Positions 31,205 to 53,169 of a DNA stretch of 64,000 bases are shown piece after piece. The notes under the pieces were generated by a model that worked only from the letters and a program-made list of their open reading frames with translations, searched no databases and had not been told where the DNA came from. The translations under genes were made by a program, and so were the position numbers. The stretch's first letter is position 1. Every line of letters begins with the position of its first letter. The DNA comes from Clostridia bacterium (lineage in GTDB: Bacteria > Bacillota > Clostridia > UBA1381 > UMGS1253). The stretch is taken from positions 15,605-79,604 of the forward strand of contig JAZSQB010000023.1 of assembly GCA_045537695.1 (NCBI GenBank). The letters run 5' to 3'.

Positions 31205-31288
31205 GCGAGTGTGCTGGAATCGGCAGACAGGCACGTTTGAGGGGCGTGTGCTTATGGCGTATGGGTTCAAGTCCCATCACTCGCACCA
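31205..31288 (+). tRNA. tRNA-Leu (anticodon GAG), type II with long variable arm, CCA encoded
   Basis: Hand fold: acceptor GCGAGTG/CACTCGC, D region GGAATCGGCAGAC, anticodon stem CACGT/GCGTG with loop TTGAGGG, T arm ATGGG-TTCAAGT-CCCAT, discriminator A, then CCA. Confidence 0.9.
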
Positions 31289-40433: not shown

Positions 40434-40469
40434 AAAAGAATGACCTCGCCCTCGCGAGGTCATTCTTTT
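40434..40469. terminator. strong bidirectional terminator
   Basis: 16-bp stem AAAAGAATGACCTCGC-CCTC-GCGAGGTCATTCTTTT. It serves the SDR gene (+) and the end of the OFOR operon (-). Confidence 0.85.
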
Positions 40470-40570: not shown

Positions 40571-41374
40571 TTAAAGTTTAAAAACTTTTTCAGCATTTAA
40601 ATGAAACAGTTTTTCATAAAACACATCTGAAAACTTCATGGACTTTAAAATTTTAAGTTCATCCGCAGCTGACCACATTGGATAGTCAGATGCAAACAAA
40701 ATCTTATCTTCTCCCCAACCCTCAAAAAGCTTCTTTACCATTGCAGTATCTTTAGCAAAGCCAAGCGTTGAGGAAGAATCTACATATAAGTTTTCAAATG
40801 CAGACAACTTGGAAAGCGCTTCGTTCCAAACGGACCAGCCGGCAAAATGCGCACCGATAACTGTCAACTTCGGAAATGTTTTTAGCACATTCAAAAGTCT
40901 GTCCGGATTGGAATAATCATAGCGGTAATCGCCTGTATGAATCAACACTGGCAAACCAAGCGCCTGACATCTTTCATAAAACGGCATACATCGCTCATCG
41001 TCAAGTGCAAATCCTTGAATATCCGGATGCATTTTAATACCGCGCAAACTAAGATTTGCCACAGCGTCTACATCTGCACGGATATCCTCACTGTCAGGAT
41101 GCATACTGCCAAGTCCAATCAGCACATCAGGATGTTCTTTTGCTTCATTTGCTATAAAATGATTAATACTGGCAACCTGATGCGGCGTTGTAGCAACGCT
41201 TTGTACCAAAAATTTGCTTATGCCTGCTTTTTTCCCTGAATCGAGTAATTGCTTTACTGAACCGTCAAACGCAGAATGTACATCATAGAACTTATCCGTA
41301 TGTTCTGTTGCTTTTTTAGCAATTTTTACCGGATAAATATGACAATGCGCATCAATGATATAGTGTTTTTTCAT
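40571..41374 (-). CDS. amidohydrolase_2-type metal-dependent TIM-barrel hydrolase
   Basis: IIDAHCHIYP..., HTGD, ASDYPMW. Last gene of the T-box-1 operon. Confidence 0.8.
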   Translation of the reverse strand: MKKHYIIDAHCHIYPVKIAKKATEHTDKFYDVHSAFDGSVKQLLDSGKKAGISKFLVQSVATTPHQVASINHFIANEAKEHPDVLIGLGSMHPDSEDIRADVDAVANLSLRGIKMHPDIQGFALDDERCMPFYERCQALGLPVLIHTGDYRYDYSNPDRLLNVLKTFPKLTVIGAHFAGWSVWNEALSKLSAFENLYVDSSSTLGFAKDTAMVKKLFEGWGEDKILFASDYPMWSAADELKILKSMKFSDVFYEKLFHLNAEKVFKL

Positions 41375-41392
41375 TCGTGTCACTTACCTGAA

Positions 41393-41926
41393 TTAATAGT
41401 TTTTACCGAGCTCTAAAGCACCGACATTGACTTCAAGCATATCCGCACGCTTAGCGGATACAACCTTGCCAAGAGTAGCTCTGATAGAATTTTCATCATA
41501 CATGCCGAGTGTCTCTAAAAGCTTACCGGTCATAATCATATTTGCAAGAGTATCAATCTTGTTTTCAGAAGCAAGCTTTGTTGCCGGAATATAAACAACA
41601 TTTACATCCGTACGCTTTACCTTGCGTTCAATCAAAGAAGATTCAACAAAAATCGTACCGCCCGGTACAACAGTATCTTCATACTTATCTAAAGACGGCA
41701 GATTCATTGCAACTAATACATCCGGCTTAGAAACGATCGGAGAACCTACCGGCATATCGCTGATAATAACGCTACAGCTTGCAGTACCACCGCGCATTTC
41801 CGGACCGTAGGACGGAAGCCAGCTTACGTTTTTATCTTCCATAAGACCTTTATATGCCAGGAATTTACCGGAGAACAAGATACCCTGTCCGCCGAAACCG
41901 GCAATCAAAATCTGTGTAGTACTCAT
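41393..41926 (-). CDS. 2-oxoacid:ferredoxin oxidoreductase, gamma subunit
   Basis: [17 protein letters not shown]...SYGPEMRGG. Confidence 0.88.
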
Positions 41927-41943
41927 AATCTTGCTCCCTCCCC

Positions 41944-42699
41944 TTATTTCTCTTCGTTTGCCGCACTTCTGTCTTTGTATACACCAAGCGGATAGTACGG
42001 AATCATCTTTTCATCCACCCATTCGAGTGCCTTCTGCGGAGTCATACCCCAGTTGGTCGGACATGTGGAAACAACTTCGATTAGAGAAAAGCCCTTGTTG
42101 TTTAACTGATTTTCAAATGCCTTCTTAATGGCTTTCTTTGCTTTTCTAACGTTTGCAACATTGTTTACGGCAACTCTTTCAAGATATTCCGGACCGTCGA
42201 GCTTGGAAAGCATCTCGCAAACCTTTACCGGATAACCGCAAGCTTCAACATCACGGCCGTACGGCGAAGTCTGTGTTACCTGACCCGGCAAGGATGTCGG
42301 TGCCATCTGACCGCCTGTCATACCGTAAATTGCGTTGTTTATAAAGATAATTGTGATATTTTCATTTCTTGCTGCGGAATGTACAGTTTCAGCCATACCG
42401 ATGGAAGCGAGGTCACCGTCACCCTGGTATGTAAATACCACATGTTCTTCCGGATTTGCACGCTTCAAGCCGGTAGCAACCGCCGGTGCACGACCGTGCG
42501 CTGCTTCAACCATATCGCAGTTAAAATAGTTGTATGCCATTACGGAGCAGCCAACCGGTGCTACGCCGATTGTTCTACCCTCAATGCCTAATTCATCAAT
42601 AACTTCAGCAACCAAACGGTGCACAATGCCGTGGGTACAACCCGGGCAATAATGCAGAGGTACATCTGCCAAAGCTTCAGGTTTCTTAAATACTACCAT
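41944..42699 (-). CDS. 2-oxoacid:ferredoxin oxidoreductase, beta (TPP-binding) subunit
   Basis: YCPGCTHG, GDGDLASIG and NNAIYGMTGGQ TPP motifs. Confidence 0.9.
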   Translation of the reverse strand: MVVFKKPEALADVPLHYCPGCTHGIVHRLVAEVIDELGIEGRTIGVAPVGCSVMAYNYFNCDMVEAAHGRAPAVATGLKRANPEEHVVFTYQGDGDLASIGMAETVHSAARNENITIIFINNAIYGMTGGQMAPTSLPGQVTQTSPYGRDVEACGYPVKVCEMLSKLDGPEYLERVAVNNVANVRKAKKAIKKAFENQLNNKGFSLIEVVSTCPTNWGMTPQKALEWVDEKMIPYYPLGVYKDRSAANEEK

Positions 42700-43775
42700 T
42701 ATTTCGCACCTCCGTTTTCGCTAACTTCCTTAATTTTTGCCAATACCTGTTCCGGCGTAACAATCATGCCGCCGACTCTGTTGCAGAGGTGTACCGGCTT
42801 TTTAAACTGTGTTGCAATCTGAACATCTTCAATCATCTGGCCCATAGAAAGTTCAACCGAAATAAAGGATTTTACCTTATCAGCAGCTGCTAAAAGCGGC
42901 TTTTTCGGGAACGGCCAAAGTGTAATTGGGCGGATTAAACCAACCTTAATGCCCTGCTTTCTTGCTTCAACAATTGCATTTTTGGATACACGCGCTGCAA
43001 TACCGAAAGCAACGATGCAGTATTCAGCATCATCCATCATGTATTCTTCATACATAACTTCGTTTTCTTCGATCTGCTTATAACGCTCATATCTTGCAAT
43101 ATTGAGCTGTTCGAGTTCTTCTGGAACGAGAGAAAGCGAGTTGATAATGTTGTGTTTTCTGCCCTTCTTTGTACCGGTTACTGCCCACGGCTTTTCAATC
43201 GGATCGGACGGCTTGATATCCAAGGATACCGGCTCCATCATCTGACCCATAGTACCGTCAGCCAAAATCATTGCAGTCATACGGTACTTATCTGCTAAAT
43301 CAAAGCCCTTGACTGTCATATCCGCCATTTCCTGTACGGAAGCCGGCGCCAGAACGATCATACGGAAGTCACCGTGACCTGCGCCGCGTGTTGCCTGGAA
43401 ATAGTCAGACTGGGACGGCTGAATACCACCAAGTCCAGGACCGCCGCGCTGTACGTTAACAACTAAGGACGGCAAGTCAGAACCTGCCAGATACGAAAGA
43501 CCTTCAGCCTTTAAAGAAATACCCGGGCTGGAGGAAGAGGTCATAACACGCATACCGGTCGATGCTACACCGTATACCATGTTAATTGCAGCAACTTCAC
43601 TCTCTGCCTGTAAAAATGTACCGCCGATTTTCGGCATTCTCTTTGCCATGTAAGCAGCAATTTCTGTCTGCGGCGTAATCGGATAACCGAAATAAAAACG
43701 GCAACCCGCCATAATCGCAGCTTCTGCGATTGCTTCATTACCTTTCATCAATGCTTTATCTGCCATTTTGCTCAC
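42699..43775 (-). CDS. 2-oxoacid:ferredoxin oxidoreductase, alpha subunit (VorB/KorA-like)
   Basis: KGNEAIAEAAIMAGCRFYFGYPITPQTEI. Stop/start overlap with the beta subunit. Confidence 0.9.
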   Translation of the reverse strand: MSKMADKALMKGNEAIAEAAIMAGCRFYFGYPITPQTEIAAYMAKRMPKIGGTFLQAESEVAAINMVYGVASTGMRVMTSSSSPGISLKAEGLSYLAGSDLPSLVVNVQRGGPGLGGIQPSQSDYFQATRGAGHGDFRMIVLAPASVQEMADMTVKGFDLADKYRMTAMILADGTMGQMMEPVSLDIKPSDPIEKPWAVTGTKKGRKHNIINSLSLVPEELEQLNIARYERYKQIEENEVMYEEYMMDDAEYCIVAFGIAARVSKNAIVEARKQGIKVGLIRPITLWPFPKKPLLAAADKVKSFISVELSMGQMIEDVQIATQFKKPVHLCNRVGGMIVTPEQVLAKIKEVSENGGAK

Positions 43776-43982
43776 TCACCTTTCTACCGTAATAATGCAA
43801 TCCGGACACATAATTGCACAGGATGCACAGCCTACACAGGCATCCATGTTCACCGCTTCAACCGGATGATGTCCTTTTGCGTTGATTTTGTCTTTAGAAA
43901 TCGCCAAAACCTCTTTCGGGCAAGCGTTTACACAAAGTCCGCAGCCCTTACAAAGATCAGTTCTGAAACTTAATTTTGCCAT
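43776..43982 (-). CDS. 2-oxoacid:ferredoxin oxidoreductase, delta subunit (2x[4Fe-4S] ferredoxin)
   Basis: 68 aa with [12 protein letters not shown] and [12 protein letters not shown]. Confidence 0.85.
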
Positions 43983-44011
43983 TATAGCTACCTCCCCAAG
44001 ATTGTGTTTAT

Positions 44012-44680
44012 TTAAATAATTTTATCTTGTAAATCCAGTGCAAATAGATTGTCAATCTTGTCTGCAAGTGCATCATAGAGCGATGCTTTTACGGTTGTCA
44101 ATTTTACCGGAATACCGCACACTTTAGAAATTTCTTCTACAAAAGGTATGGATTCAAGCACCTGCTCCGGCGTTGTTTCCTCCCCTAAATTTGAATTGTT
44201 AATGATTGCCGTAAAAGGTATCTTTGAAGCCGTTTCAATCTCACGAATAACCTCTAACATGTCCTCTAAATTTCTTGTAAGCGGTCGGTATGCATTAACA
44301 ACCAAAAACATTTCATAGTTGTTTTCTTCTTTAATTGCATCCGAAAGTCTGCCGAGTGCAAGTGCGCCGCGATCATCACCGCCAATGTCTACAATCGCAT
44401 AGCAATCACGTTTTTCTATTATGCGATACATTTCCTGCGGCAGCGCCGGAATGTCTACATTGGAATTTGCATACGGTGAACAAATCAGCTCTATTCCCGC
44501 TGCATCTAATTCTTTTTGACTGTCTTTTGTGCGGAAGTACGGGTTGACAATATCAATATCGGCAATCAATACATCCTCACCCCTGCGCTTTAAATCAAAT
44601 GCAAGATTCACGGCGATATTGGTTTTGCCACTGCCGTAATGTCCCGACAAAAGAAGTACACGCTTATCTGACATTGTCAT
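44012..44680 (-). CDS. MinD/ParA/CooC-like P-loop ATPase
   Basis: Deviant Walker [14 protein letters not shown] and Walker B IADID. 222 aa, lying 6 nt after the synthetase stop. Confidence 0.7.
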
Positions 44681-44686
44681 CCCCCA

Positions 44687-46993
44687 TTAAAGCTTATTTC
44701 TCTGAATCTTACCGCTGACGGTCTTCGGCAGACTGTCGCGGAATACAACAATTCGCGGATACTTATACGGCGCTGTTCTTTCCTTGACATAATTCTGAAT
44801 TTCTTTCTTCAGCTCATCCGTGCCTTCTTTGCCGTTTACAAGCACGATGCTTGCTTTGACAACCTGACCTCTTACCTCGTCCGGTTCAGCAGATACACCA
44901 CATTCCAGCACGTACGGAAGCTCCATAATAACACTTTCAATTTCAAATGGTCCGATGCGGTAGCCGGAGGACTTAATAACGTCATCCACGCGACCTACGT
45001 ACCAGTAGAAACCGTCTTCATCCATCCATGCAGTATCACCGGTATGGTAATAGCCGTCATGCATAACTTCTGCAGTTTTCTCTGCATCGCCGTGATAGCC
45101 GACAAATAGACCGCAAGGCATGCCGTCCTCAATACGGATTACAATCTCGCCTGTTTCGCCGACAGCAACATCGTTGCCTTCTGCATCAACTAACTTTACA
45201 TCATATATCGGACTCGGTTTACCCATGGAACCGATTTTGTGGTCAGCACCGTAAAGGTTGCCGATAATCATTGTGCTTTCACTCTGACCGAAGCCTTCCA
45301 GAATCTGAAGACCCGTTACCTTCTCAAATTGGCGGTAAACCTCCGGATTGAGCGCCTCGCCTGCTGTTGTCATATGTTCTACTGAGGATAAATCGTATTT
45401 AGAAATATCCTGCTTTATAAGCATACGCAGCATTGTCGGCGGTGCGCAGAAGGTTGTAATGTGATGCTTTGCAAACATCGGCAGGATTTCTGCCGCGTCA
45501 AAGCGGTCAAAGTCGTACACAAACGTTGCGGCTTCGCAGAGCCATTGGCCGTAGAGTTTACCCCACATGGACTTCGCCCAGCCGGTATCGGAAATGGTAA
45601 AGTGTAATCCTTCCGGATTTACACAATGCCAGTACTTCGCTGTATGGAAATGACCGAGCGGATATTTGTAGTTATGCGCCGCAAGTTTCGGGTAACCGGA
45701 TGTGCCGGATGTGAAGAACATCAGCATCAAATCATCACCACAAGGTGCATCTTCGGCTCTCTCAAAGTGCGTACTATACATCATATATTCATCGTTAAAA
45801 TCTCTCCAGCCGTCACGCACGCCGCCAACTATAATTTTGTTGACGAGCTGAGGACACTTATCAGCAACTAAATCAATCTGATGCGCAGTGTCACCATCTG
45901 CAGTACAAATAACCGTTTTGATGTTCGCTGCATTAAATCTGTACTCAAAATCATGCTCCTGCAGCTGATTTGTTGCCGGAATTGCAATTGCACCGAGCTT
46001 GTTAAGTGCCATCATCGCAAACCAGAACTGATAGTGACGCTTGAGTACAAGCATTACGGTATCGCCACGTTTGATACCGATAGCTTTAAAGTAGTTCGCG
46101 CATCTGTTCGACGCTTTACTGATATCAGAAAAGGTAAATCTTCTCTCTGTCTTTTCCCTGTCAATATGCAACATCGCAAGCTTATCCGGCTTTGTTCTAG
46201 CAAGCTCATCTACAACATCGAAAGCAAAGTTGAACTTCTCTGTGTTTTTAAATGTAATGGAAGTAGGTGTACCGGCTTCGTTTTTTACAACATCTACATA
46301 CTTGTTATATACGCGTTTTGTTTTGCGGATTTCCGGGTTTTCCATCGAAGCGGACTTCTTATGCGTTTCCGGCTCTTTCTTCGGCTGGAGTTCCGGAATC
46401 GGCTCCCCTGTCGGGTTAAGTACAATCGCGTAGAACAAGCAATCCTGACCGTCTACGGCAATCATACCGTGCGGCGTGGAAGAATCGTAGTATATGCTGT
46501 CTCCCGGGCCTAAGACAACGCTGTGGCTGCCTACTTGAACCTTTAAATGTCCCTGGATAATAATATCGCATTCCTGACCGTTATGGGTTGTCAGTTCAAT
46601 ATCACGTCTCTCTGCCTCCGGGTCATACTCGCTCTTTACATAAAGCGGCTCGGCAATTCTGTTTTTAAATGCAGATGCTAAATTGTAGTATACCATGCCG
46701 TGTGCCTGCTCAATCTTCTGACCGCCGCCGGCACGTGTTACCGTATAAGATTTCAGTTTTGGGCTGGAACCTTCAATAATATCGGTGACATCGACATTAA
46801 ATGCTAGCGCGCAACGGTAAATAAAAGCAAAGTTTAAATCGCTTTCCCCATTTTCACAGCGCAGATATTCTTCGACAGAAACATCCGTCTTTTGTGCCAT
46901 ATCATCGACAGATAAGCCAATAATTTCGCGCAGCTCGCGGATTCTGCCTGCCATTTCTTTAATTTTGAAGTCAAGTCCTGTAATTTGTTTCAT
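44687..46993 (-). CDS. fusion protein: XRE-type HTH + cupin + AMP-forming acyl-CoA synthetase (paralog 1)
   Basis: 768 aa from MKQITG (AGGAGG RBS). HTH RIRELREIIGLSVDDMAQKTDVSVEEYLRCENG. Cupin region HNGQECDIIIQGHLKVQVG...PHGM. ANL motifs FTSGTSGYPK, GFGQSE, YHTGD, GRVDDVIKSSGYRIGPFEIE and PKTVSGKIQR. Confidence 0.88.
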   Translation of the reverse strand: MKQITGLDFKIKEMAGRIRELREIIGLSVDDMAQKTDVSVEEYLRCENGESDLNFAFIYRCALAFNVDVTDIIEGSSPKLKSYTVTRAGGGQKIEQAHGMVYYNLASAFKNRIAEPLYVKSEYDPEAERRDIELTTHNGQECDIIIQGHLKVQVGSHSVVLGPGDSIYYDSSTPHGMIAVDGQDCLFYAIVLNPTGEPIPELQPKKEPETHKKSASMENPEIRKTKRVYNKYVDVVKNEAGTPTSITFKNTEKFNFAFDVVDELARTKPDKLAMLHIDREKTERRFTFSDISKASNRCANYFKAIGIKRGDTVMLVLKRHYQFWFAMMALNKLGAIAIPATNQLQEHDFEYRFNAANIKTVICTADGDTAHQIDLVADKCPQLVNKIIVGGVRDGWRDFNDEYMMYSTHFERAEDAPCGDDLMLMFFTSGTSGYPKLAAHNYKYPLGHFHTAKYWHCVNPEGLHFTISDTGWAKSMWGKLYGQWLCEAATFVYDFDRFDAAEILPMFAKHHITTFCAPPTMLRMLIKQDISKYDLSSVEHMTTAGEALNPEVYRQFEKVTGLQILEGFGQSESTMIIGNLYGADHKIGSMGKPSPIYDVKLVDAEGNDVAVGETGEIVIRIEDGMPCGLFVGYHGDAEKTAEVMHDGYYHTGDTAWMDEDGFYWYVGRVDDVIKSSGYRIGPFEIESVIMELPYVLECGVSAEPDEVRGQVVKASIVLVNGKEGTDELKKEIQNYVKERTAPYKYPRIVVFRDSLPKTVSGKIQRNKL

Positions 46994-47036
46994 GATTTGC
47001 CTCCTGTTTGGGGGTATTTCTTTTAGGAACGTTACA

Positions 47037-47320
47037 TAAAAATCGCCCGTCCCAAGCTGATTGAACTTGGGACGAGCGTTGCATATACTGCCTACCCGCG
47101 GTACCACCCAAATTGCAACGCAAATTTGCGTTACCACTCATCGGAATCTAACAATTCCTGCGCCATTACGTTGCGCTGACGGGAAGGTTCTACTTGCATG
47201 CGCTTTCTTCCTTCCAGCTCTGAAGCTACAGCCATTCAAGTCGGATTTCGACGGCTCGCACCAAACGCCGCTTCTCTGAGTCTTCCTTCTTGACGCACTC
47301 TTCGTCAATGCCTTTATTTA
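47037..47320 (-). promoter_or_regulatory. T-box riboswitch leader 1 (controls 44687-46993 and downstream operon)
   Basis: Minus strand shows Stem I with GACGAAG, an AGAGA bulge, a distal GGUGCGA loop and an AGUAGA box. The T-box 5'-AAUUUGGGUGGUACCGCG-3' lies at plus 47097-47114. The terminator CGUCCCAAG-N9-CUUGGGACG plus U-run lies right before the RBS. Confidence 0.9.
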
Positions 47321-47323
47321 AAC

Positions 47324-47352
47324 ATTATAGTACATTCTATGTTGAAAGTCAA
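47324..47352 (-). promoter_or_regulatory. promoter of T-box leader 1 (TTGACT-17-TATAAT)
   Basis: Hexamers on the minus strand with a 17-nt spacer, 35 nt after the stop of paralog 2. Confidence 0.7.
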
Positions 47353-47387
47353 CTGTTTTTTTGCGAATTTAAGCCATTTTTCGCATT

Positions 47388-49658
47388 TTAGAGTTTGTTT
47401 CTCTGAATCTTACCGCTAATGGTTTTCGGTAATTCATCGCGGAATACAACAATACGCGGATATTTGTACGGTGCCGTTCTTTCCTTAACATAATTTTGAA
47501 TTTCTTTCTTAAGCTCATCCGTGCCTTCTGTACCCTTCGTAAGCACGATGCTCGCTTTTACAACCTGACCTCTTACTTCGTCAGGCTCAGCAGATACGCC
47601 ACATTCAAGCACATACGGAAGCTCCATAATAACACTCTCGATTTCAAAAGGTCCAATGCGGTAGCCGGAAGACTTAATTACGTCATCCACACGACCAACA
47701 TACCAGTAGAAGCCGTCTTCATCCTTCCAAGCGGTGTCACCGGTGTGATAATAACCATCGTGCCACGCTTCGTTGGTCTTTTCTTCGTTCAGATAATAGC
47801 CACTGAACAGACCGCACGGTACATTTTCGCTTGTCTTAATAACAATTTCTCCTGTTTCACCAACGCCCGCCGGTGTGCCATCCGGCAATTGAATGTCTAC
47901 ATCGTACATCGGACTCGGTTTACCCATCGAGCCAAGCTTATGTTTGTTACCGCGCAAATTCGCGATAACGAGTGTTGTTTCTGTCTGTCCGAAGCCTTCG
48001 CGGATACGCAGACCAGTTGCTTTTTCAAATGCTCTGTATACTTCCGGATTGAGTGCTTCGCCCGCAGTTGTCATACGCTTGATGGAAGACAGATCGTAGT
48101 TGGAAATATCCTGTTTAACAAGCATGCGCAGCATAGTAGGCGGCGCACAAAATGTTGTAATCTGATACTTTGCAAACATTGGCAGGATGTCAGATGCATC
48201 AAAGCGGTCAAAGTCATACGTAAACACTGCCCCTTCACAAAGCCACTGTCCGTAGAACTTACCCCAAAGCGCTTTCCCCCAACCCGTGTCGGAGATAGTA
48301 AAGTGAATACCATCTCTGTATACGCCGTGCCAGTATTTTGCCGTAATAAAATGACCGAGCGCATAACGGTAGCTCTGTGTCGCAATTTTGGGATAACCAG
48401 TTGTACCGGAAGTGAAAAACATAATCATCGGGTCTGTGCCGCACGGTGTATCTTCACTTCTTTCAAATTTACCGGTAAACAGACTGTAGTTTTCATCAAA
48501 ATCGTGCCAGTCCTCTCGGTTGCCACCTACCAAAATCTTGGTTTTCAGCGTCGGACTTTTCCGTTGCGCGCTATCCACCTGCTCAGCCGTATTTCCGTCA
48601 GCCGTACACAAAATCGCACTCACGCCTGCGGCGTTAAAACGATATTCAAAATCGTGCTCCTGCAGCTGATTGGTCGCCGGAATTGCAATTGCACCAAGTT
48701 TATGCAAACCAAGCATCGCAAACCAGAACTGGTAATGACGTTTGAGCACAACCATCACTCTGTCGCCTTTTTTGATGCCAAGTGATTTAAAGTAGTTTGC
48801 ACACTGGGCAGAGGCACGTTTCATATCTTTAAAAGTAAATCTTCTTTCGGTTTTATTTACATCCAGATGCAGCATCGCAAGCTTGTCAGGATATTTATCC
48901 GCAATTTCATCCACAACGTCGAACGCAAAATTAAATTTATCATCGTCTGTAAAGTCAATCGATTTAAGCGCACCGTTTTCTTCTTCAGTTGTATGGATGA
49001 ACTTCTCACAAATCAAAGCCTCGGATTTACCGGCAGAAACTACGCTGTCACGAATAATATCTTCTGATGTTTCTTCACCGGATACAACTACGGCTAAAAA
49101 GAGACAGTCTTTGCCATCCACGGCAATCATACCATGCGGAATGGAGCTATTGTAGAAGATACTATCACCTTCATGCAGAATTTCAGTATTTTCACCAATC
49201 TGCACCTTGAGGCTGCCTGAAATAATTAAGTCAAACTCCTGACCGCTGTGTGTTGTCAGATGTATCGGACGGTTCTGCTGATCAGCGTTGTATTCATAGA
49301 GCACCGAATACGGCTCTGCGAGCTTATTTTTAAAGCGCGGTGCCAGGTTTTTAATATCAATGCCGTCTTCTTTCGCCGTCTGCTGACCATGGTCTTTTCT
49401 TGTAATTGTATACGAAGACAGAAAAGTTGCGCTTTGACCTTCCAGAATATCAGACATTCCGACATCGAATACCAATGCACACTTATGAATAAAGCTGAAC
49501 GGAAAATCAATCTCGCCCGCTTCATAGCGCAGATATTCGCCAACACTGACTTCTGTCTTCCGTGCTGTTTCTTCAATACTTAAACCGGCAATTTCGCGAG
49601 CTTCACGAATTCTGCCTGCGATTTCAAACAGCTTTGTTTTTGTTGTGGATGTTTCCAT
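47388..49658 (-). CDS. fusion protein: XRE-type HTH + cupin + AMP-forming acyl-CoA synthetase (paralog 2)
   Basis: 756 aa from METSTTK (gggagg RBS). Same three-domain layout, with FTSGTTGYPK, GFGQTE, YHTGD, GRVDDVIKSSGYRIGPFEIE and PKTISGKIQR. Confidence 0.88.
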   Translation of the reverse strand: METSTTKTKLFEIAGRIREAREIAGLSIEETARKTEVSVGEYLRYEAGEIDFPFSFIHKCALVFDVGMSDILEGQSATFLSSYTITRKDHGQQTAKEDGIDIKNLAPRFKNKLAEPYSVLYEYNADQQNRPIHLTTHSGQEFDLIISGSLKVQIGENTEILHEGDSIFYNSSIPHGMIAVDGKDCLFLAVVVSGEETSEDIIRDSVVSAGKSEALICEKFIHTTEEENGALKSIDFTDDDKFNFAFDVVDEIADKYPDKLAMLHLDVNKTERRFTFKDMKRASAQCANYFKSLGIKKGDRVMVVLKRHYQFWFAMLGLHKLGAIAIPATNQLQEHDFEYRFNAAGVSAILCTADGNTAEQVDSAQRKSPTLKTKILVGGNREDWHDFDENYSLFTGKFERSEDTPCGTDPMIMFFTSGTTGYPKIATQSYRYALGHFITAKYWHGVYRDGIHFTISDTGWGKALWGKFYGQWLCEGAVFTYDFDRFDASDILPMFAKYQITTFCAPPTMLRMLVKQDISNYDLSSIKRMTTAGEALNPEVYRAFEKATGLRIREGFGQTETTLVIANLRGNKHKLGSMGKPSPMYDVDIQLPDGTPAGVGETGEIVIKTSENVPCGLFSGYYLNEEKTNEAWHDGYYHTGDTAWKDEDGFYWYVGRVDDVIKSSGYRIGPFEIESVIMELPYVLECGVSAEPDEVRGQVVKASIVLTKGTEGTDELKKEIQNYVKERTAPYKYPRIVVFRDELPKTISGKIQRNKL

Positions 49659-49717
49659 TTTTCTCTTACCTCCCATAAAAGGTTCTCAAAATTTTGCTTT
49701 CGACGGTTTTTTACATT

Positions 49718-49975
49718 AAAAAAACCGTCTCAAAGTTTTCTTTGAGACGGGTGAAATTTCACTCGCGGTACCACTCAAATTGCAGTTAAACTGCCACTCG
49801 TCGGAATCTATCAATTCCTGTGCACTGACGTAGCATACACGGGAAACGTCTACTCGCTTTCACTTTCGGGTTTCCGGCTCAGAAGGGATAGGTATTTGAA
49901 AAGTTTGTCATTGACTCGCACCAACCGTCAACTCTCTGGAGACGCTACAGTTCAACCGTCTTCGTCACAGCCTAT
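49718..49975 (-). promoter_or_regulatory. T-box riboswitch leader 2 (controls 47388-49658)
   Basis: Minus strand shows GACGAAG, AGAGA, a GGUGCGA distal loop and AGUAGA. The T-box 5'-AAUUUGAGUGGUACCGCG-3' lies at plus 49764-49781. The terminator is CCGUCUCAAAG-AAAA-CUUUGAGACGG plus U7. Confidence 0.9.
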
Positions 49976-49981
49976 GAATGT

Positions 49982-50010
49982 ATAATACACCCAAAAAGCA
50001 GTTTTGTCAA
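49982..50010 (-). promoter_or_regulatory. promoter of T-box leader 2 (TTGACA-17-TATTAT)
   Basis: Hexamers on the minus strand with a 17-nt spacer. Confidence 0.65.
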
Positions 50011-50030: not shown

Positions 50031-50065
50031 CAAAAAATGTCCCGATACATGCGGTATCGGGACAT
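50031..50065 (-). terminator. terminator of the oxaloacetate decarboxylase operon
   Basis: Perfect 12-bp stem ATGTCCCGATAC-N5-GTATCGGGACAT followed on the minus strand by UUUUUG. Confidence 0.85.
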
Positions 50066-50069
50066 TAAA

Positions 50070-51515
50070 TTATTTAATCGGGTAATCTTTGGAGTCCATG
50101 TCGATATATTCAACATCAAATGCAGCTTTTGCCGGTGCTGCTTCAGCAGCCGGTGCGCTCTGCTCAACCTTCGGCGCCTTTCTGTGCTCAAAGTACTTCA
50201 TGGCAACCGGGCCGAACAGTGCATAGGACAATACATCCTCGTCCTGCTCTACGTAATCCTTGATTTCTTCTCTGAGCTTGTCAATTTCCGGCTCGAGTTT
50301 ATCTGCCGGACGGCAGGTAATTCTTTCTTCATCACCGATAACCTTCTTTACGATTTCATCGCTGATCGGAACCGGCGTCTGACCGTACTCACCGCGCACA
50401 ATACCTTTTGTTTCCTTGGTGATCATCTTATAACGCTCACCCATCAAAACGTTAAGCACTGCCTGTGTGCCGACAATCTGGCTCGACGGTGTAACGAGCG
50501 GCGGGAAACCTAAATCTTCACGCACGCGCGGTACTTCCTTGAGTACGTCCATAAACTTTCCTTCCTGACCCTGCTGCTTGAGCTGGGATACGAGGTTCGA
50601 GAGCATACCGCCCGGCACCTGGTAACGCAGTGTGTTAACATCCACACCCATAACCTTCGGGTCCATAAGACCACTCTTAAGGTATTCTTCACGAAGCGGT
50701 CTGAAGTAGTCTGCAATCTCACTTAAGAGGTCAAGATCAAGGCCTGTGTCATACTCTGTACCCTGCAATGCAGCAACCATCGGCTCTGTAGCCGGCTGGG
50801 ATGTACCAAGTGCGAGCGGAGACATAGCACAGTCGATTACGTCTATACCTGCTTCAATTGCCTTTAAGTAGGTCATCGAAGCCTCACCGCTTGTGTAGTG
50901 TGTATGCAGCTGAATCGGAATTTTAATTTCTTCCTTCATCGCTTTTACAAGGTCATATGCAGTATACGGAAGCAAAAGTGCAGCCATATCCTTGATGCAA
51001 ATGGAGTCCGCACCCATTTCTTCCAGCTGCTTTGCGAGCTTTACGAAAGACTCAATGTTGTGCACCGGGCTGATGGTGTAACATACAGTTGCCTGTACGT
51101 GTGCTTTTGCCTGATTGGCAGCTTTGATTGCCGCCTCCAGGTTTCTTGGGTCATTAAGTGCGTCGAAGATACGTAAGATATCAATACCATTATCTACGGA
51201 TTTCTTAACGAAGTAATCTACAACATCATCTGCATAATGTCTGTAACCGAGAATATTCTGACCGCGGAACAGCATCTGCAATTTCGTATTCTTAGCCTTA
51301 TCCTTAATCTTTCTTAAACGCTCCCATGGGTCTTCGTTTAAGAAGCGCAGGCAGGAGTCAAATGTAGCACCGCCCCATGCCTCTAAGGAATGATAGCCAA
51401 CTTTATCTAATTTTTCAACAATCGGAAGCATTTCTTCCGTTGTCATACGCGTAGCAATCAAAGACTGATGCGCGTCTCTTAATATGGTTTCAGTAATTTT
51501 AACCGGTTTTGCCAT
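50070..51515 (-). CDS. oadA: oxaloacetate decarboxylase alpha subunit, carboxyltransferase part only (no biotinyl domain)
   Basis: ITETILRDAHQSL...HTHYTSG. HMGL-like TIM barrel plus the PYC_OADA region. Ends without an AMKM biotin motif. Confidence 0.88.
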   Translation of the reverse strand: MAKPVKITETILRDAHQSLIATRMTTEEMLPIVEKLDKVGYHSLEAWGGATFDSCLRFLNEDPWERLRKIKDKAKNTKLQMLFRGQNILGYRHYADDVVDYFVKKSVDNGIDILRIFDALNDPRNLEAAIKAANQAKAHVQATVCYTISPVHNIESFVKLAKQLEEMGADSICIKDMAALLLPYTAYDLVKAMKEEIKIPIQLHTHYTSGEASMTYLKAIEAGIDVIDCAMSPLALGTSQPATEPMVAALQGTEYDTGLDLDLLSEIADYFRPLREEYLKSGLMDPKVMGVDVNTLRYQVPGGMLSNLVSQLKQQGQEGKFMDVLKEVPRVREDLGFPPLVTPSSQIVGTQAVLNVLMGERYKMITKETKGIVRGEYGQTPVPISDEIVKKVIGDEERITCRPADKLEPEIDKLREEIKDYVEQDEDVLSYALFGPVAMKYFEHRKAPKVEQSAPAAEAAPAKAAFDVEYIDMDSKDYPIK

Positions 51516-51553
51516 ATTTAGTTACCTCCCCTATATTTAAATTAACAGCCGAA

Positions 51554-52738
51554 CTACTTAAGCATCGACAGGAATACGCCAGCTGCTACCGCAGAACCAA
51601 TAACACCAGCAACATTCGGACCCATAGCGTGCATCAAAAGAAAGTTCTTTGGATTTGCTTCTTGACCAACCTTTTGCGATACACGCGCTGCCATCGGTAC
51701 AGCTGATACACCAGCAGAACCGATAAGCGGATTTATTTTTCCCTTTGTCAGGAAGCACATCAGCTTACCCAACAATAAGCCGCCTGCAGTCGAGAACGCA
51801 AACGCAACAATACCAAGACCAATAATCATCAAGGTCTGCGGTCTTAAGAACGCATCCGCTGTTGCAGTTGCGCCAACCGTTGTGCCAAGAAAAATTGTGA
51901 TAATGTTCATCAATTCATTCTGTGCAGTCTTGCTGATTCTGTCTGTTACGCCACATTCTTTTGCAAGATTACCAAGCATTAACATACCAACTAGCGGAAT
52001 TGCATCCGGTACAATCAAACCAACAACTACAGTTACTGCAATCGGGAAAATGATTTTTTCCGTCTTGGAAACTGGACGAAGCTGCTCCATCACAATCATA
52101 CGCTCTTTCTTTGTGGTCATCAGCTTCATAATCGGCTTCTGAATAACTTCAATCAGTGCCATATAGGAATAAGCCGCAATCGCAATTGCAGAAAGCAAAT
52201 GCGGTGCCAAAGTCTTTGTAATATAAATCGCTGTCGGACCGTCCGCACCACCAATAATACCGATAGAGCCTGCCTCTTGCGGTGTAAAGCCAAGCAGAAG
52301 TGCTGCTGCAAAGGTGAAGAACACACCAAACTGAGCAGCTGCACCCAAAAGAATGCTCTTTGGATTTGCAATCAGCGGACCGAAGTCAGTCATCGCACCG
52401 ACACCCAAGAAAATAAGCGGCGGATAAATACCGAGCTTAACACCTAGGTACAAAAGGTCTAAAAGACCGCCTTCTTTTAATACTTTGCCATAATCAATCG
52501 TTTCGCCTGTATACCAATCCGGATGCATAATGTCCGCTGCCTGTGGCAGATTCGCCAAAAGCATACCAAACGCAATCGGCAAAAGCAGTAGCGGTTCAAA
52601 TTTTTTAGCAATCGCAAGATAAATTAAAACAAAAGCAATCAGGAGCATTGCAATTGTTTTTACGCCGTCAACCCAACCGTTTGCAAACAGCAGGTTGAAA
52701 CCGGTCGTCGCCATAAATTCAGCGAGAAACTGTTGCAT
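51554..52738 (-). CDS. oadB: Na+-transporting decarboxylase beta subunit
   Basis: 394 aa, polytopic, with the OadB/GcdB/MmdB pattern ([14 protein letters not shown]...[10 protein letters not shown]...). Confidence 0.9.
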
Positions 52739-52770
52739 TGTATATCACTCACCTCTAAAGTCATATAATA

Positions 52771-53127
52771 TTAGCCAATTGTTACGAGAACATCGCCTGT
52801 ATTTACAGTGGATCCCTTTGTTGTGTTTACAGCGGAAATTGTGCCATCACACGGAGCAAGAATTTCGTTTTCCATCTTCATAGCTTCAAGAATAACGAGA
52901 ACTTCACCAGACTTCACACTCTGTCCTGCAGAAACCTTAATATCCAAAATGTTACCCGGCATCGGCGCTGTTACCGCATTTGCACCAGCCGGCACAGCCG
53001 TCGGAACCGGTGCCGCAGCCGGTGCTTCTGTCTTTGCTGCAGAGATAGGTGCGTTTGTTACGCCAGTAGCTTCTTCTACTTCTACGTTATAAACATTACC
53101 GTTTACTTTTACTACAAAATTCTTCAT
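52771..53127 (-). CDS. biotin carboxyl-carrier subunit of the decarboxylase
   Basis: Ala/Pro linker and LEAMKMENEI biotinylation motif. GGAGG RBS before MKNFVVK. Confidence 0.85.
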   Translation of the reverse strand: MKNFVVKVNGNVYNVEVEEATGVTNAPISAAKTEAPAAAPVPTAVPAGANAVTAPMPGNILDIKVSAGQSVKSGEVLVILEAMKMENEILAPCDGTISAVNTTKGSTVNTGDVLVTIG

Positions 53128-53169
53128 TTTTCTTTCCTCCAAATCTCCAATAAAACTTTAAATTTTCCC

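Follow-up and report, generated by a model that had tools for sequence, protein, structure and literature searches.

We analysed a 64,000-nucleotide stretch of a Clostridia bacterium genome (GenBank assembly GCA_045537695.1, contig JAZSQB010000023.1, positions 15,605 to 79,604 of the forward strand), called the window below, in which a string of genes on the minus strand is interspersed with two T-box leaders. Each leader stands before one of two paralogous acyl-coenzyme A (acyl-CoA) ligases: lig2, the upstream ligase, lies behind leader 2, which carries an isoleucine specifier, and lig1, the downstream ligase, lies behind leader 1, which carries a valine specifier. lig1 is followed by a P-loop NTPase, the four subunits of a 2-oxoacid:ferredoxin oxidoreductase (OFOR) and an amidohydrolase. 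An initial annotation, made from the letters of the DNA alone, had proposed a tRNA-gated route from short branched acids to branched-chain amino acids (BCAAs) at this locus, and all of the features it described were recovered, at its coordinates or a few bases off. Our comparison of the locus with its relatives supports the proposal, in that the Ile and Val specifiers match the two ligase paralogs across the parsed leaders.

Two T-box leaders in series

The promoters, the leaders and their parts are as follows.

49982..50010, minus strand: promoter P2 of the Ile unit, TTGACA-17-TATTAT, 11/12 consensus
49725..49977, minus strand: T-box leader 2 (Ile), RF00230 match 49977..49740, 84.5 bits, E 3.8e-18
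49889..49887, minus strand: specifier AUC of leader 2, then C at 49886 and the closing helix at 49885..49882
49781..49764, minus strand: T-box core of leader 2, AAUUUGAGUGGUACCGCG, with the UGGU bulge at 49773..49770
49750..49725, minus strand: terminator of leader 2
47324..47352, minus strand: promoter P1 of the Val unit, TTGACT-17-TATAAT, 11/12 consensus, beginning 36 nt past the lig2 stop
47044..47317, minus strand: T-box leader 1 (Val), RF00230 match 47317..47065, 85.2 bits, E 2.6e-18
47229..47227, minus strand: specifier GUA of leader 1, then G at 47226 and the closing helix at 47225..47222
47114..47097, minus strand: T-box core of leader 1, AAUUUGGGUGGUACCGCG, with the UGGU bulge at 47106..47103
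47078..47044, minus strand: terminator of leader 1

Relatives of the ligases were found in about 580 species by one scan of species-representative genomes, and the comparison set used throughout consists of the best 80 loci, one per species. All 80 come from Oscillospirales metagenome-assembled genomes of human and herbivore guts or rumens, labelled Acutalibacteraceae, Oscillospiraceae, 'Ruminococcus' or Clostridia.

In E-value mode both leaders match the Rfam T-box family RF00230 over model positions 1-219 (E about 1e-18), and each is complete, with its own promoter, specifier loop, core and terminator, as had been claimed for the minus strand. When the entire window was scanned at gathering thresholds, Rfam gave no match at all, because both scores fall under the 93 bits that Rfam 15 sets as the gathering score; given two full-length matches in E-value mode, we dropped the empty default scan as proof of absence. 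Five of about 12 Ile and Val leaders from six relatives (L003, L009, L011, L028, L038 and L063) do pass, with 93.3-105.7 bits, so that the leader family belongs to RF00230 and the window copies are sub-threshold orthologs. Routine Rfam annotation would overlook about half of these leaders.

The architecture is that expected of a T-box. Stem I with its K-turn, specifier loop, AG bulge and distal loop emerges both from direct reading and from the model alignment, and the AGAGA bulge, the UUGGUGCGAG distal loop (GGUGCGA, as in the initial annotation) and the AGUAGA box can be read directly in both leaders, which share the T-box sequence AAUUUG(G/A)GUGGUACCGCG. Leader 1 ends in a 15-bp hairpin with a U run (fold z -4.8 against shuffled sequences) and leader 2 in an 11-bp hairpin with a U run (z -4.9). 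In the covariance-model alignment the 5' arm of the terminator is also the 3' arm of the antiterminator, and the two structures are therefore mutually exclusive. The T-box core is present 5' of all 80 lig1-type genes (79 loci and the window) and of all 59 lig2-type genes. Across an alignment of 48 leaders, with a consensus fold computed by RNAalifold, the UGGU bulge is invariant (48/48) and 27 of 43 pairs stay paired through changes on both sides; the terminator helix is likewise kept in relatives through G-U and A-U pairs and compensatory changes.

The promoters are close to the sigma-70 consensus and conserved as well: TTGACA-17-TGnTAtAAT is kept before the lig2 leader in 48 aligned leaders, and a P1-type promoter in 68 aligned lig1 leaders, often with fewer than 10 nt between it and the end of lig2. 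In the window the interval from lig2 to P1 is free of terminators. Transcripts that start at the Ile leader would thus meet the Val terminator, and the VOR-like oxidoreductase would be gated by tRNA-Val alone; the earlier caveat that the oxidoreductase lies only behind leader 1 stands.

Specifiers and ligase paralogs

We took as specifier the triplet that precedes the closing helix of the specifier loop by one base, which is also the frame set by the TBDB rule. All 73 parsed lig1 leaders then carry a valine codon (GUA in 70, GUC in three), each followed by a purine, and 48 of 50 parsed lig2 leaders carry the isoleucine codon AUC, the other two having been mis-anchored by the search pattern. 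The closing helix covaries (GAAG/CUUC, GAAA/UUUC, GGAG/CUCC, AAAG/CUUU), which fixes the frame. Other frames were considered for the Ile leader and rejected. Shifted by -1, it reads CAU or UAU, that is, different amino acids across orthologs; shifted by +1, it reads the serine codons UCC, UCA or UCG, and the same shift turns the specifier of the Val leader into the stops UAG and UAA. The TBDB frame rule further argues against the serine frame, as does the UGGU bulge, which pairs with a discriminator A73: the tRNA-Val of one relative has A73, whereas the tRNA-Ser of another has G73. The pairing of specifier and paralog is perfect, lig1-type genes following Val leaders and lig2-type genes following Ile leaders. 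Judged by these codons, leader 1 would read tRNA-Val and leader 2 tRNA-Ile, the response to tRNA itself being predicted from the RNA sequence.

Three observations concern tRNAs and T-boxes nearby. The sole tRNA gene in the window, tRNA-Leu(GAG) at 31205-31288 on the plus strand, would read the CUC specifier of the Leu T-boxes of relatives described below. A tRNA-Val(CAC) gene in locus L062 (13164-13240, minus strand) lies about 150 nt past the amidohydrolase that ends the vor operon, which may be coincidence. In locus L061 another T-box, with the specifier UUC (Phe), is found at about 900-1220 on the plus strand, 9 kb upstream of the Val-T-box ligase.

The two leaders precede the following genes.

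47388..49658, minus strand: lig2, 756 aa, HTH_3-Cupin_2-AMP-binding-AMP-binding_C, putative 2-methylbutyrate--CoA ligase
44687..46993, minus strand: lig1, 768 aa, HTH_3-Cupin_2-AMP-binding-AMP-binding_C, putative isobutyrate--CoA ligase

The initial annotation had described two paralogous adenylate-forming enzymes of about 760 aa and expected a helix-turn-helix (HTH), a cupin and two ligase domains in each. The proteins are indeed 66% identical to each other, and Pfam finds HTH_3/HTH_31/HTH_19, Cupin_2, AMP-binding and AMP-binding_C in both. Their nearest solved relative is Macs (3ETC), at 607 bits for lig2 (51% identity) and 608 bits for lig1 (50%) over 523 residues, the next match scoring 346. 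The adenylation motifs A3, A5, A7, A8 and A10 (TSGT[ST]GYPK, GFGQ[ST]E, YHTGD, GRVDDVI and PKT[VI]SGK) and the catalytic Lys are intact in both paralogs. Both also have the hallmarks of the alternate acyl pocket defined for Macs-type enzymes (PMC10455477), namely Gly in place of Acs Trp416 (in GFGQ) and the alternate Trp259 (in TAKYW). Macs of M. acetivorans prefers 2-methylbutyrate, the sole substrate for which the full CoA reaction was reported, and adenylates propionate and other C3-C8 acids, and many other substrates stall after adenylation (PMC10455477). Among NCBIfam models the best for both ligases is MbcS (NF047394; 420.6 bits for lig2 and 430.5 bits for lig1), and purified MbcS of S. 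aureus is selective for 2-methylbutyrate and isobutyrate, isovalerate being a poor substrate (PMC10026030). The closest characterised relatives thus favour 2-methylbutyrate and/or isobutyrate, the acids that yield Ile and Val, in line with the acid:CoA ligase activity first proposed.

When 80 lig1 and 61 lig2 sequences are compared, 17 positions separate the two clades at 90% conservation or more, 11 of them in the N-terminal module and six in the ligase domain:

lig1 N331, lig2 H319: Macs H132
lig1 A473, lig2 G461: Macs G278
lig1 M476, lig2 L464: Macs V281
lig1 A488, lig2 G476: Macs C293
lig1 M575, lig2 L563: Macs V380
lig1 G578, lig2 A566: Macs A383

The Macs residue is shared by lig2 at three of the six (H132, G278 and A383) and by lig1 at none. 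At four (Macs 278, 281, 293 and 380) the lig1 side chain equals or exceeds that of lig2, and at Macs 383 the order is reversed. If these positions line the acyl pocket, as we presume from the pocket positions of Acs and luciferase, these lig1 residues would fit a smaller, C4 substrate as opposed to the C5 substrate of lig2. From homology, together with the match of specifier and paralog, we infer that lig1 acts on isobutyrate and lig2 on 2-methylbutyrate.

The fusion family is large, with more than 8000 clusters at 90% identity, few of them named: 'AMP-binding protein' and, once, 'acetyl-CoA synthetase'. No other protein of the collection falls into the 90%-identity cluster of the window lig2. 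The 10 kb upstream of lig1 contain neither lig2 nor the Ile leader in L001 and L002, the closest relatives, whose lig1 is 91-92% identical to that of the window, so that the Ile unit was gained or lost between close relatives.

Residues 1-195 of the fusion match a complete HTH_3 plus cupin regulator with the domain order of 1Y9Q, and stand-alone homologs of this module (182-190 aa, 31-45% identity) are common. The module is thus like the XRE-HTH plus cupin regulators of the 1Y9Q type, of which E. coli PuuR is the textbook stand-alone example, in its domains and their order, and differs from them in being fused to an enzyme. Bifunctional enzyme-regulators such as BirA and PutA are known. That 11 of the 17 discriminating positions fall in the N-terminal module suggests paralog-specific recognition. 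It is conceivable, if rather doubtful, that the fusions are bifunctional enzyme-sensors, with the cupin as binding site for the cognate acid or for the amino acid that is the end product; the cupin would then act either allosterically on the ligase or, through the HTH, as a repressor of transcription. DNA binding by the fused HTH module is putative, and an inspection of 116 aligned promoter regions showed no conserved operator palindrome. The window has an A/T-rich inverted repeat, TGCGAA-N12-TTCGCA, just 5' of the P1 -35 element, after the lig2 stop (47353-47376, minus strand). We considered it as an HTH operator and rejected it, since the repeat is not kept in the closest relatives, L001 and L002, and is probably no operator. 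Were the enzyme-sensor idea true, RNA and protein would form an AND gate within a metabolic enzyme, with expression confined to times at which the amino acid runs short, as sensed by the T-box, and the protein senses either the precursor acid or a lack of the product.

The oxidoreductase operon and its surroundings

Downstream of lig1 the Val unit continues with these genes.

44012..44680, minus strand: P-loop NTPase of the SIMIBI class, 222 aa, CbiA/MinD-type, Pfam CbiA E 2e-10
43776..43982, minus strand: OFOR delta subunit, ferredoxin-like, 68 aa, Fer4, with two [4Fe-4S] CxxCxxCxxxCP motifs
42699..43775, minus strand: OFOR alpha subunit, VorB subfamily, 358 aa, POR_N and PFOR_II
41944..42699, minus strand: OFOR beta subunit, 251 aa, TPP_enzyme_C, with an intact TPP motif GDG...NN and the Fe-S cysteines Cys18/21/51/213
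41393..41926, minus strand: OFOR gamma subunit, 177 aa, POR (PF01558), E 1.8e-32
40571..41383, minus strand: Amidohydro_2 (PF04909) protein, 270 aa, E 5e-35, of a metal-dependent hydrolase/decarboxylase family
40434..40469, minus strand: operon-end terminator, bidirectional and common to the convergent SDR gene, -36.8 kcal/mol, z -12.2

After lig1 the genes are spaced from a 1-base overlap to 29 nt, close to the 0-30 nt first noted, and Pfam and folding bear out both the operon content and the strong terminator at its end, which our pattern scanner did not list and which was read directly and folded. By tblastn, about 70 of the 80 loci have the genes in the order lig2, lig1, P-loop NTPase, vorD, vorA, vorB, vorG, which answers the call of the initial annotation for a survey of the neighbourhood. 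The vor-less loci have no other OFOR downstream of lig1.

The alpha subunit passes the cut-off of the VorB model NF005507 (PRK07119 subfamily; 546.8 bits, cut-off 399), in agreement with the VOR-like assignment made at the outset. Its scores stay below the cut-offs of the NCBIfam models for Kor, Oor, Por, Ior and archaeal VOR, among them PRK08659 (Kor; 323 vs 411) and OorA (252 vs 579). The substrates of the OFOR and its direction are thus proposed from the VorB subfamily assignment and from the logic of T-box control, and a preference for branched substrates is suggested by the subfamily name and the Val T-box context.

The P-loop NTPase has the Walker A motif GHYGSGKT and lies between lig1 and vorD in every vor-containing locus. 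Its few named homologs are all called 'hypothetical protein', and its AlphaFold2 model (pLDDT 86.7) matches only generic SRP54/FtsY/FlhF folds, with template-modelling scores of 0.55-0.6. A role as Fe-S carrier or NifH-like electron donor was rejected, the protein having no CxxC, one conserved Cys and only these generic SIMIBI relatives.

The amidohydrolase, whose nearest PDB entry (3IRS) is an uncharacterised protein, adjoins vorG in the window, in L002, in L062 and in no other locus; at its other observed locations it closes a Leu-T-box operon. It is, to judge by this gene context, a mobile member of the BCAA T-box regulon. The operon in question is headed by a third T-box, with the Leu specifier CUC (once CUG), present in about 24 of the 80 loci, 4-7 kb from the vor operon, and not in the window. 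Such loci include L011, L014, L019, L027, L028, L030, L034, L036, L047, L050, L060, L063, L065, L066, L069, L071 and L077-L080, besides others. In L011 (16700-21751, plus strand) the first gene behind the Leu T-box encodes a divergent LeuA-like synthase (HMGL-like plus LeuA_dimer) that scores below all isopropylmalate synthase cut-offs, the second an 835-aa protein in which a xylose-isomerase-like TIM barrel is joined to an AMP-ligase, and the third the Amidohydro_2 protein. These relatives thus hold an Ile, Val and Leu trio of T-box operons in one neighbourhood; of the Leu operon the window keeps the amidohydrolase only, relocated behind vorG.

On its upstream side the locus is bounded by one further feature.

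50036..50066, minus strand: terminator of the upstream operon, 13-bp hairpin and U run, insulating the locus from upstream transcription

The upstream operon itself (50070-53142, minus strand) is of the Na+-translocating, biotin-dependent decarboxylase type, that is, of the oxaloacetate/methylmalonyl-CoA decarboxylase type, with a PYC_OADA/HMGL-like carboxyltransferase, OAD_beta and a Biotin_lipoyl carrier. Downstream of the locus lie an SDR gene, mnmA and a NifS-like gene.

A candidate salvage route and its relation to known systems

We consider it likely that the locus serves the salvage of Ile and Val from branched short-chain acids and is induced by starvation for charged tRNA-Ile and tRNA-Val. 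According to this proposal, uncharged tRNA-Ile(GAU) would bind leader 2 by pairing with its AUC specifier and its UGGU bulge, the antiterminator would be stabilised and lig2 would be transcribed; uncharged tRNA-Val(UAC) at the GUA of leader 1 would likewise allow transcription of lig1, the P-loop NTPase, vorDABG and the amidohydrolase. lig2 would convert 2-methylbutyrate, and lig1 isobutyrate, to the CoA thioester, with cleavage of ATP to AMP and PPi. The four-subunit OFOR, with reduced ferredoxin and CO2, would then carboxylate the thioesters to 2-oxo-3-methylvalerate and 2-oxoisovalerate, and a housekeeping branched-chain aminotransferase encoded elsewhere would complete Ile and Val. Shortage of an amino acid is what makes a T-box permit transcription, and T-boxes are known to control genes of amino-acid supply; ligases of the AMP-forming type, in turn, convert the acid to its CoA thioester. 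Induction at scarcity and the direction of the ligases together fit synthesis, not breakdown. Isobutyrate, 2-methylbutyrate and isovalerate are required by, or of benefit to, many anaerobes of the rumen and gut, and labelling work of the 1960s showed their carboxylation to Val, Ile and Leu. Rumen methanogens use branched-chain volatile fatty acids for Ile and Leu (PMC10658910).

Several points weigh against this proposal. A purine normally follows the specifier of a T-box, whereas of 48 Ile leaders 26 have C there, 20 have A and two have G. Among the proteins, the ligases reach only about half of the MbcS equivalog cut-off of 850, which makes them MbcS relatives, not equivalogs. The oxidoreductase scores far under the cut-offs of the archaeal VOR models (NF006232 alpha, 76 vs 646; NF008818 beta, 66.9 vs 405) and so lies outside the archaeal VOR lineage; its nearest solved relatives are the uncharacterised 1YD7 of P. 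furiosus and the 2-oxoglutarate-type 8YS5 and 6N2N, and the subfamily name 'VorB' is itself an annotation. The HTH-cupin module, the P-loop NTPase and the amidohydrolase play no part in the scheme. As for gene content, no aminotransferase or ilv genes were found in the operon or in the window flanks searched, so that the initial caveat about the aminotransferase holds, and in seven of the 80 loci lig1 with its Val T-box stands alone amid unrelated genes. Finally, with the VOR only behind the Val leader, starvation for Ile alone would give lig2 without induced VOR. Carboxylation of 2-methylbutyryl-CoA under this condition might depend on basal VOR or on an OFOR elsewhere in the genome, both of which are possibilities; the window has no second OFOR.

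Three other explanations of the locus were weighed. The ligases might make isobutyryl- and 2-methylbutyryl-CoA as primers for branched membrane fatty acids, induced when Val and Ile, the usual source of such primers, are short, and the OFOR would then be accessory or oxidative. MbcS, the top NCBIfam model, has exactly that role, and the Val-T-box ligases without an adjacent OFOR would suit it; yet the VOR is co-transcribed behind the Val leader in about 70 of the 80 loci, an oxidative OFOR, induced by a shortage of these amino acids, would use up the keto acids from which they are made, and it is amino-acid supply that T-boxes are known to gate. We find this explanation improbable as an alternative, although the lipid and amino-acid uses are compatible and the acyl-CoA could feed both. 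The Ile arm could also start from propionate, which lig2 would convert to propionyl-CoA and the OFOR to 2-oxobutyrate, the ilv enzymes leading on to Ile. That anaerobes make Ile in this way, by reductive carboxylation starting from propionate, is part of classical biochemistry, and Macs does adenylate propionate and other C3-C8 acids. The full Macs reaction is reported for 2-methylbutyrate only, however, lig2 agrees with Macs at three of the six discriminating positions, and an intact ilv pathway would be required, so that we think this origin of the Ile arm unlikely.

A third explanation would make the locus a catabolic or general module, the OFOR acting on 2-oxoglutarate, pyruvate or a broad range of 2-oxoacids and the ligases on unrelated acids, with a T-box link to something other than Val and Ile synthesis, or with the AMP-forming ligases reversed for energy conservation. 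The closest solved relatives of the OFOR, which are 2-oxoglutarate enzymes, speak for it. We nevertheless regard it as very improbable: induction at Val and Ile scarcity is the opposite of what breakdown needs, the match of specifier and paralog is perfect across 80 loci, the ligases are closest to branched-acid enzymes, and the alpha subunit falls under the Kor and Oor cut-offs and over that of VorB.

If the salvage of Ile and Val is indeed the function, then most likely uncultured gut and rumen Clostridia remake these amino acids from 2-methylbutyrate and isobutyrate at times of shortage. For this pathway, apparently no genes have so far been pinned down in gut and rumen Firmicutes, and the locus would supply them. 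The leaders serve here as a kind of annotation, a Val switch marking lig1 and the oxidoreductase and an Ile switch marking lig2, in at least 80 species. These genes would be candidates for a cross-feeding step that links gut protein fermentation to amino-acid supply, of relevance to isoacid supplements in ruminant nutrition and to metabolic models of uncultured Oscillospirales. The locus also widens the target range of T-boxes and exposes three uncharacterised parts, the HTH-cupin fusion, the OFOR-tied SIMIBI NTPase and the mobile amidohydrolase.

The components (T-box, Macs/MbcS-like ligase, OFOR) are known and the chemistry is classical. The full-text literature that we searched, including papers on T-box regulons and TBDB, contains no description of a T-box/acyl-CoA ligase/OFOR module; this backs the initial impression of novelty without proving it, and an earlier mention is possible. 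Specifically, we did not find described a T-box on ligase/OFOR salvage, two specificities in series, an HTH-cupin-ligase fusion or an OFOR-linked NTPase.

Compared with known systems one by one, the window ligases are like Macs in identity (50-51%), in the adenylation motifs and in the alternate pocket Trp and the Gly for Acs Trp, and unlike it in being bacterial and T-box-controlled, in having an N-terminal HTH_3 plus Cupin_2 module of about 195 aa with a linker of about 40-50 aa, and in forming two paralogs that differ at six conserved positions. With MbcS they share the best NCBIfam model, and the substrate pair of that enzyme comprises the acids needed for Ile and Val; MbcS, in contrast, feeds fatty-acid primers and has no HTH-cupin module, and the MbcS papers examined make no mention of a T-box or a partner OFOR. 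The proposed OFOR reaction, from acyl-CoA, CO2 and reduced ferredoxin to 2-oxoacid and on to BCAA, is that of the anabolic VOR of methanogens and rumen bacteria. The enzyme of the window differs from that of methanogens in belonging to the bacterial VorB subfamily (PRK07119) and in its association with a P-loop NTPase, and the tRNA-leader control is without archaeal counterpart. AMP-forming ligase genes are reportedly paired with vor in Methanothermobacter (Tersteegen et al. 1997).

Known T-box-controlled BCAA genes of Firmicutes include ilv-leu of B. subtilis with its Leu T-box, ileS, valS and BCAA transporters. The leaders described here resemble these in the Stem I specifier, the UGGN bulge, the competing antiterminator and terminator, and control by transcription attenuation, and they would resemble them also in that an uncharged tRNA induces the supply of its own amino acid. 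They differ in their targets, which are an acyl-CoA ligase and an OFOR instead of a synthetase, a de novo pathway or a transporter, and in their arrangement, with two leaders of different specificity placed in series in one gene string.

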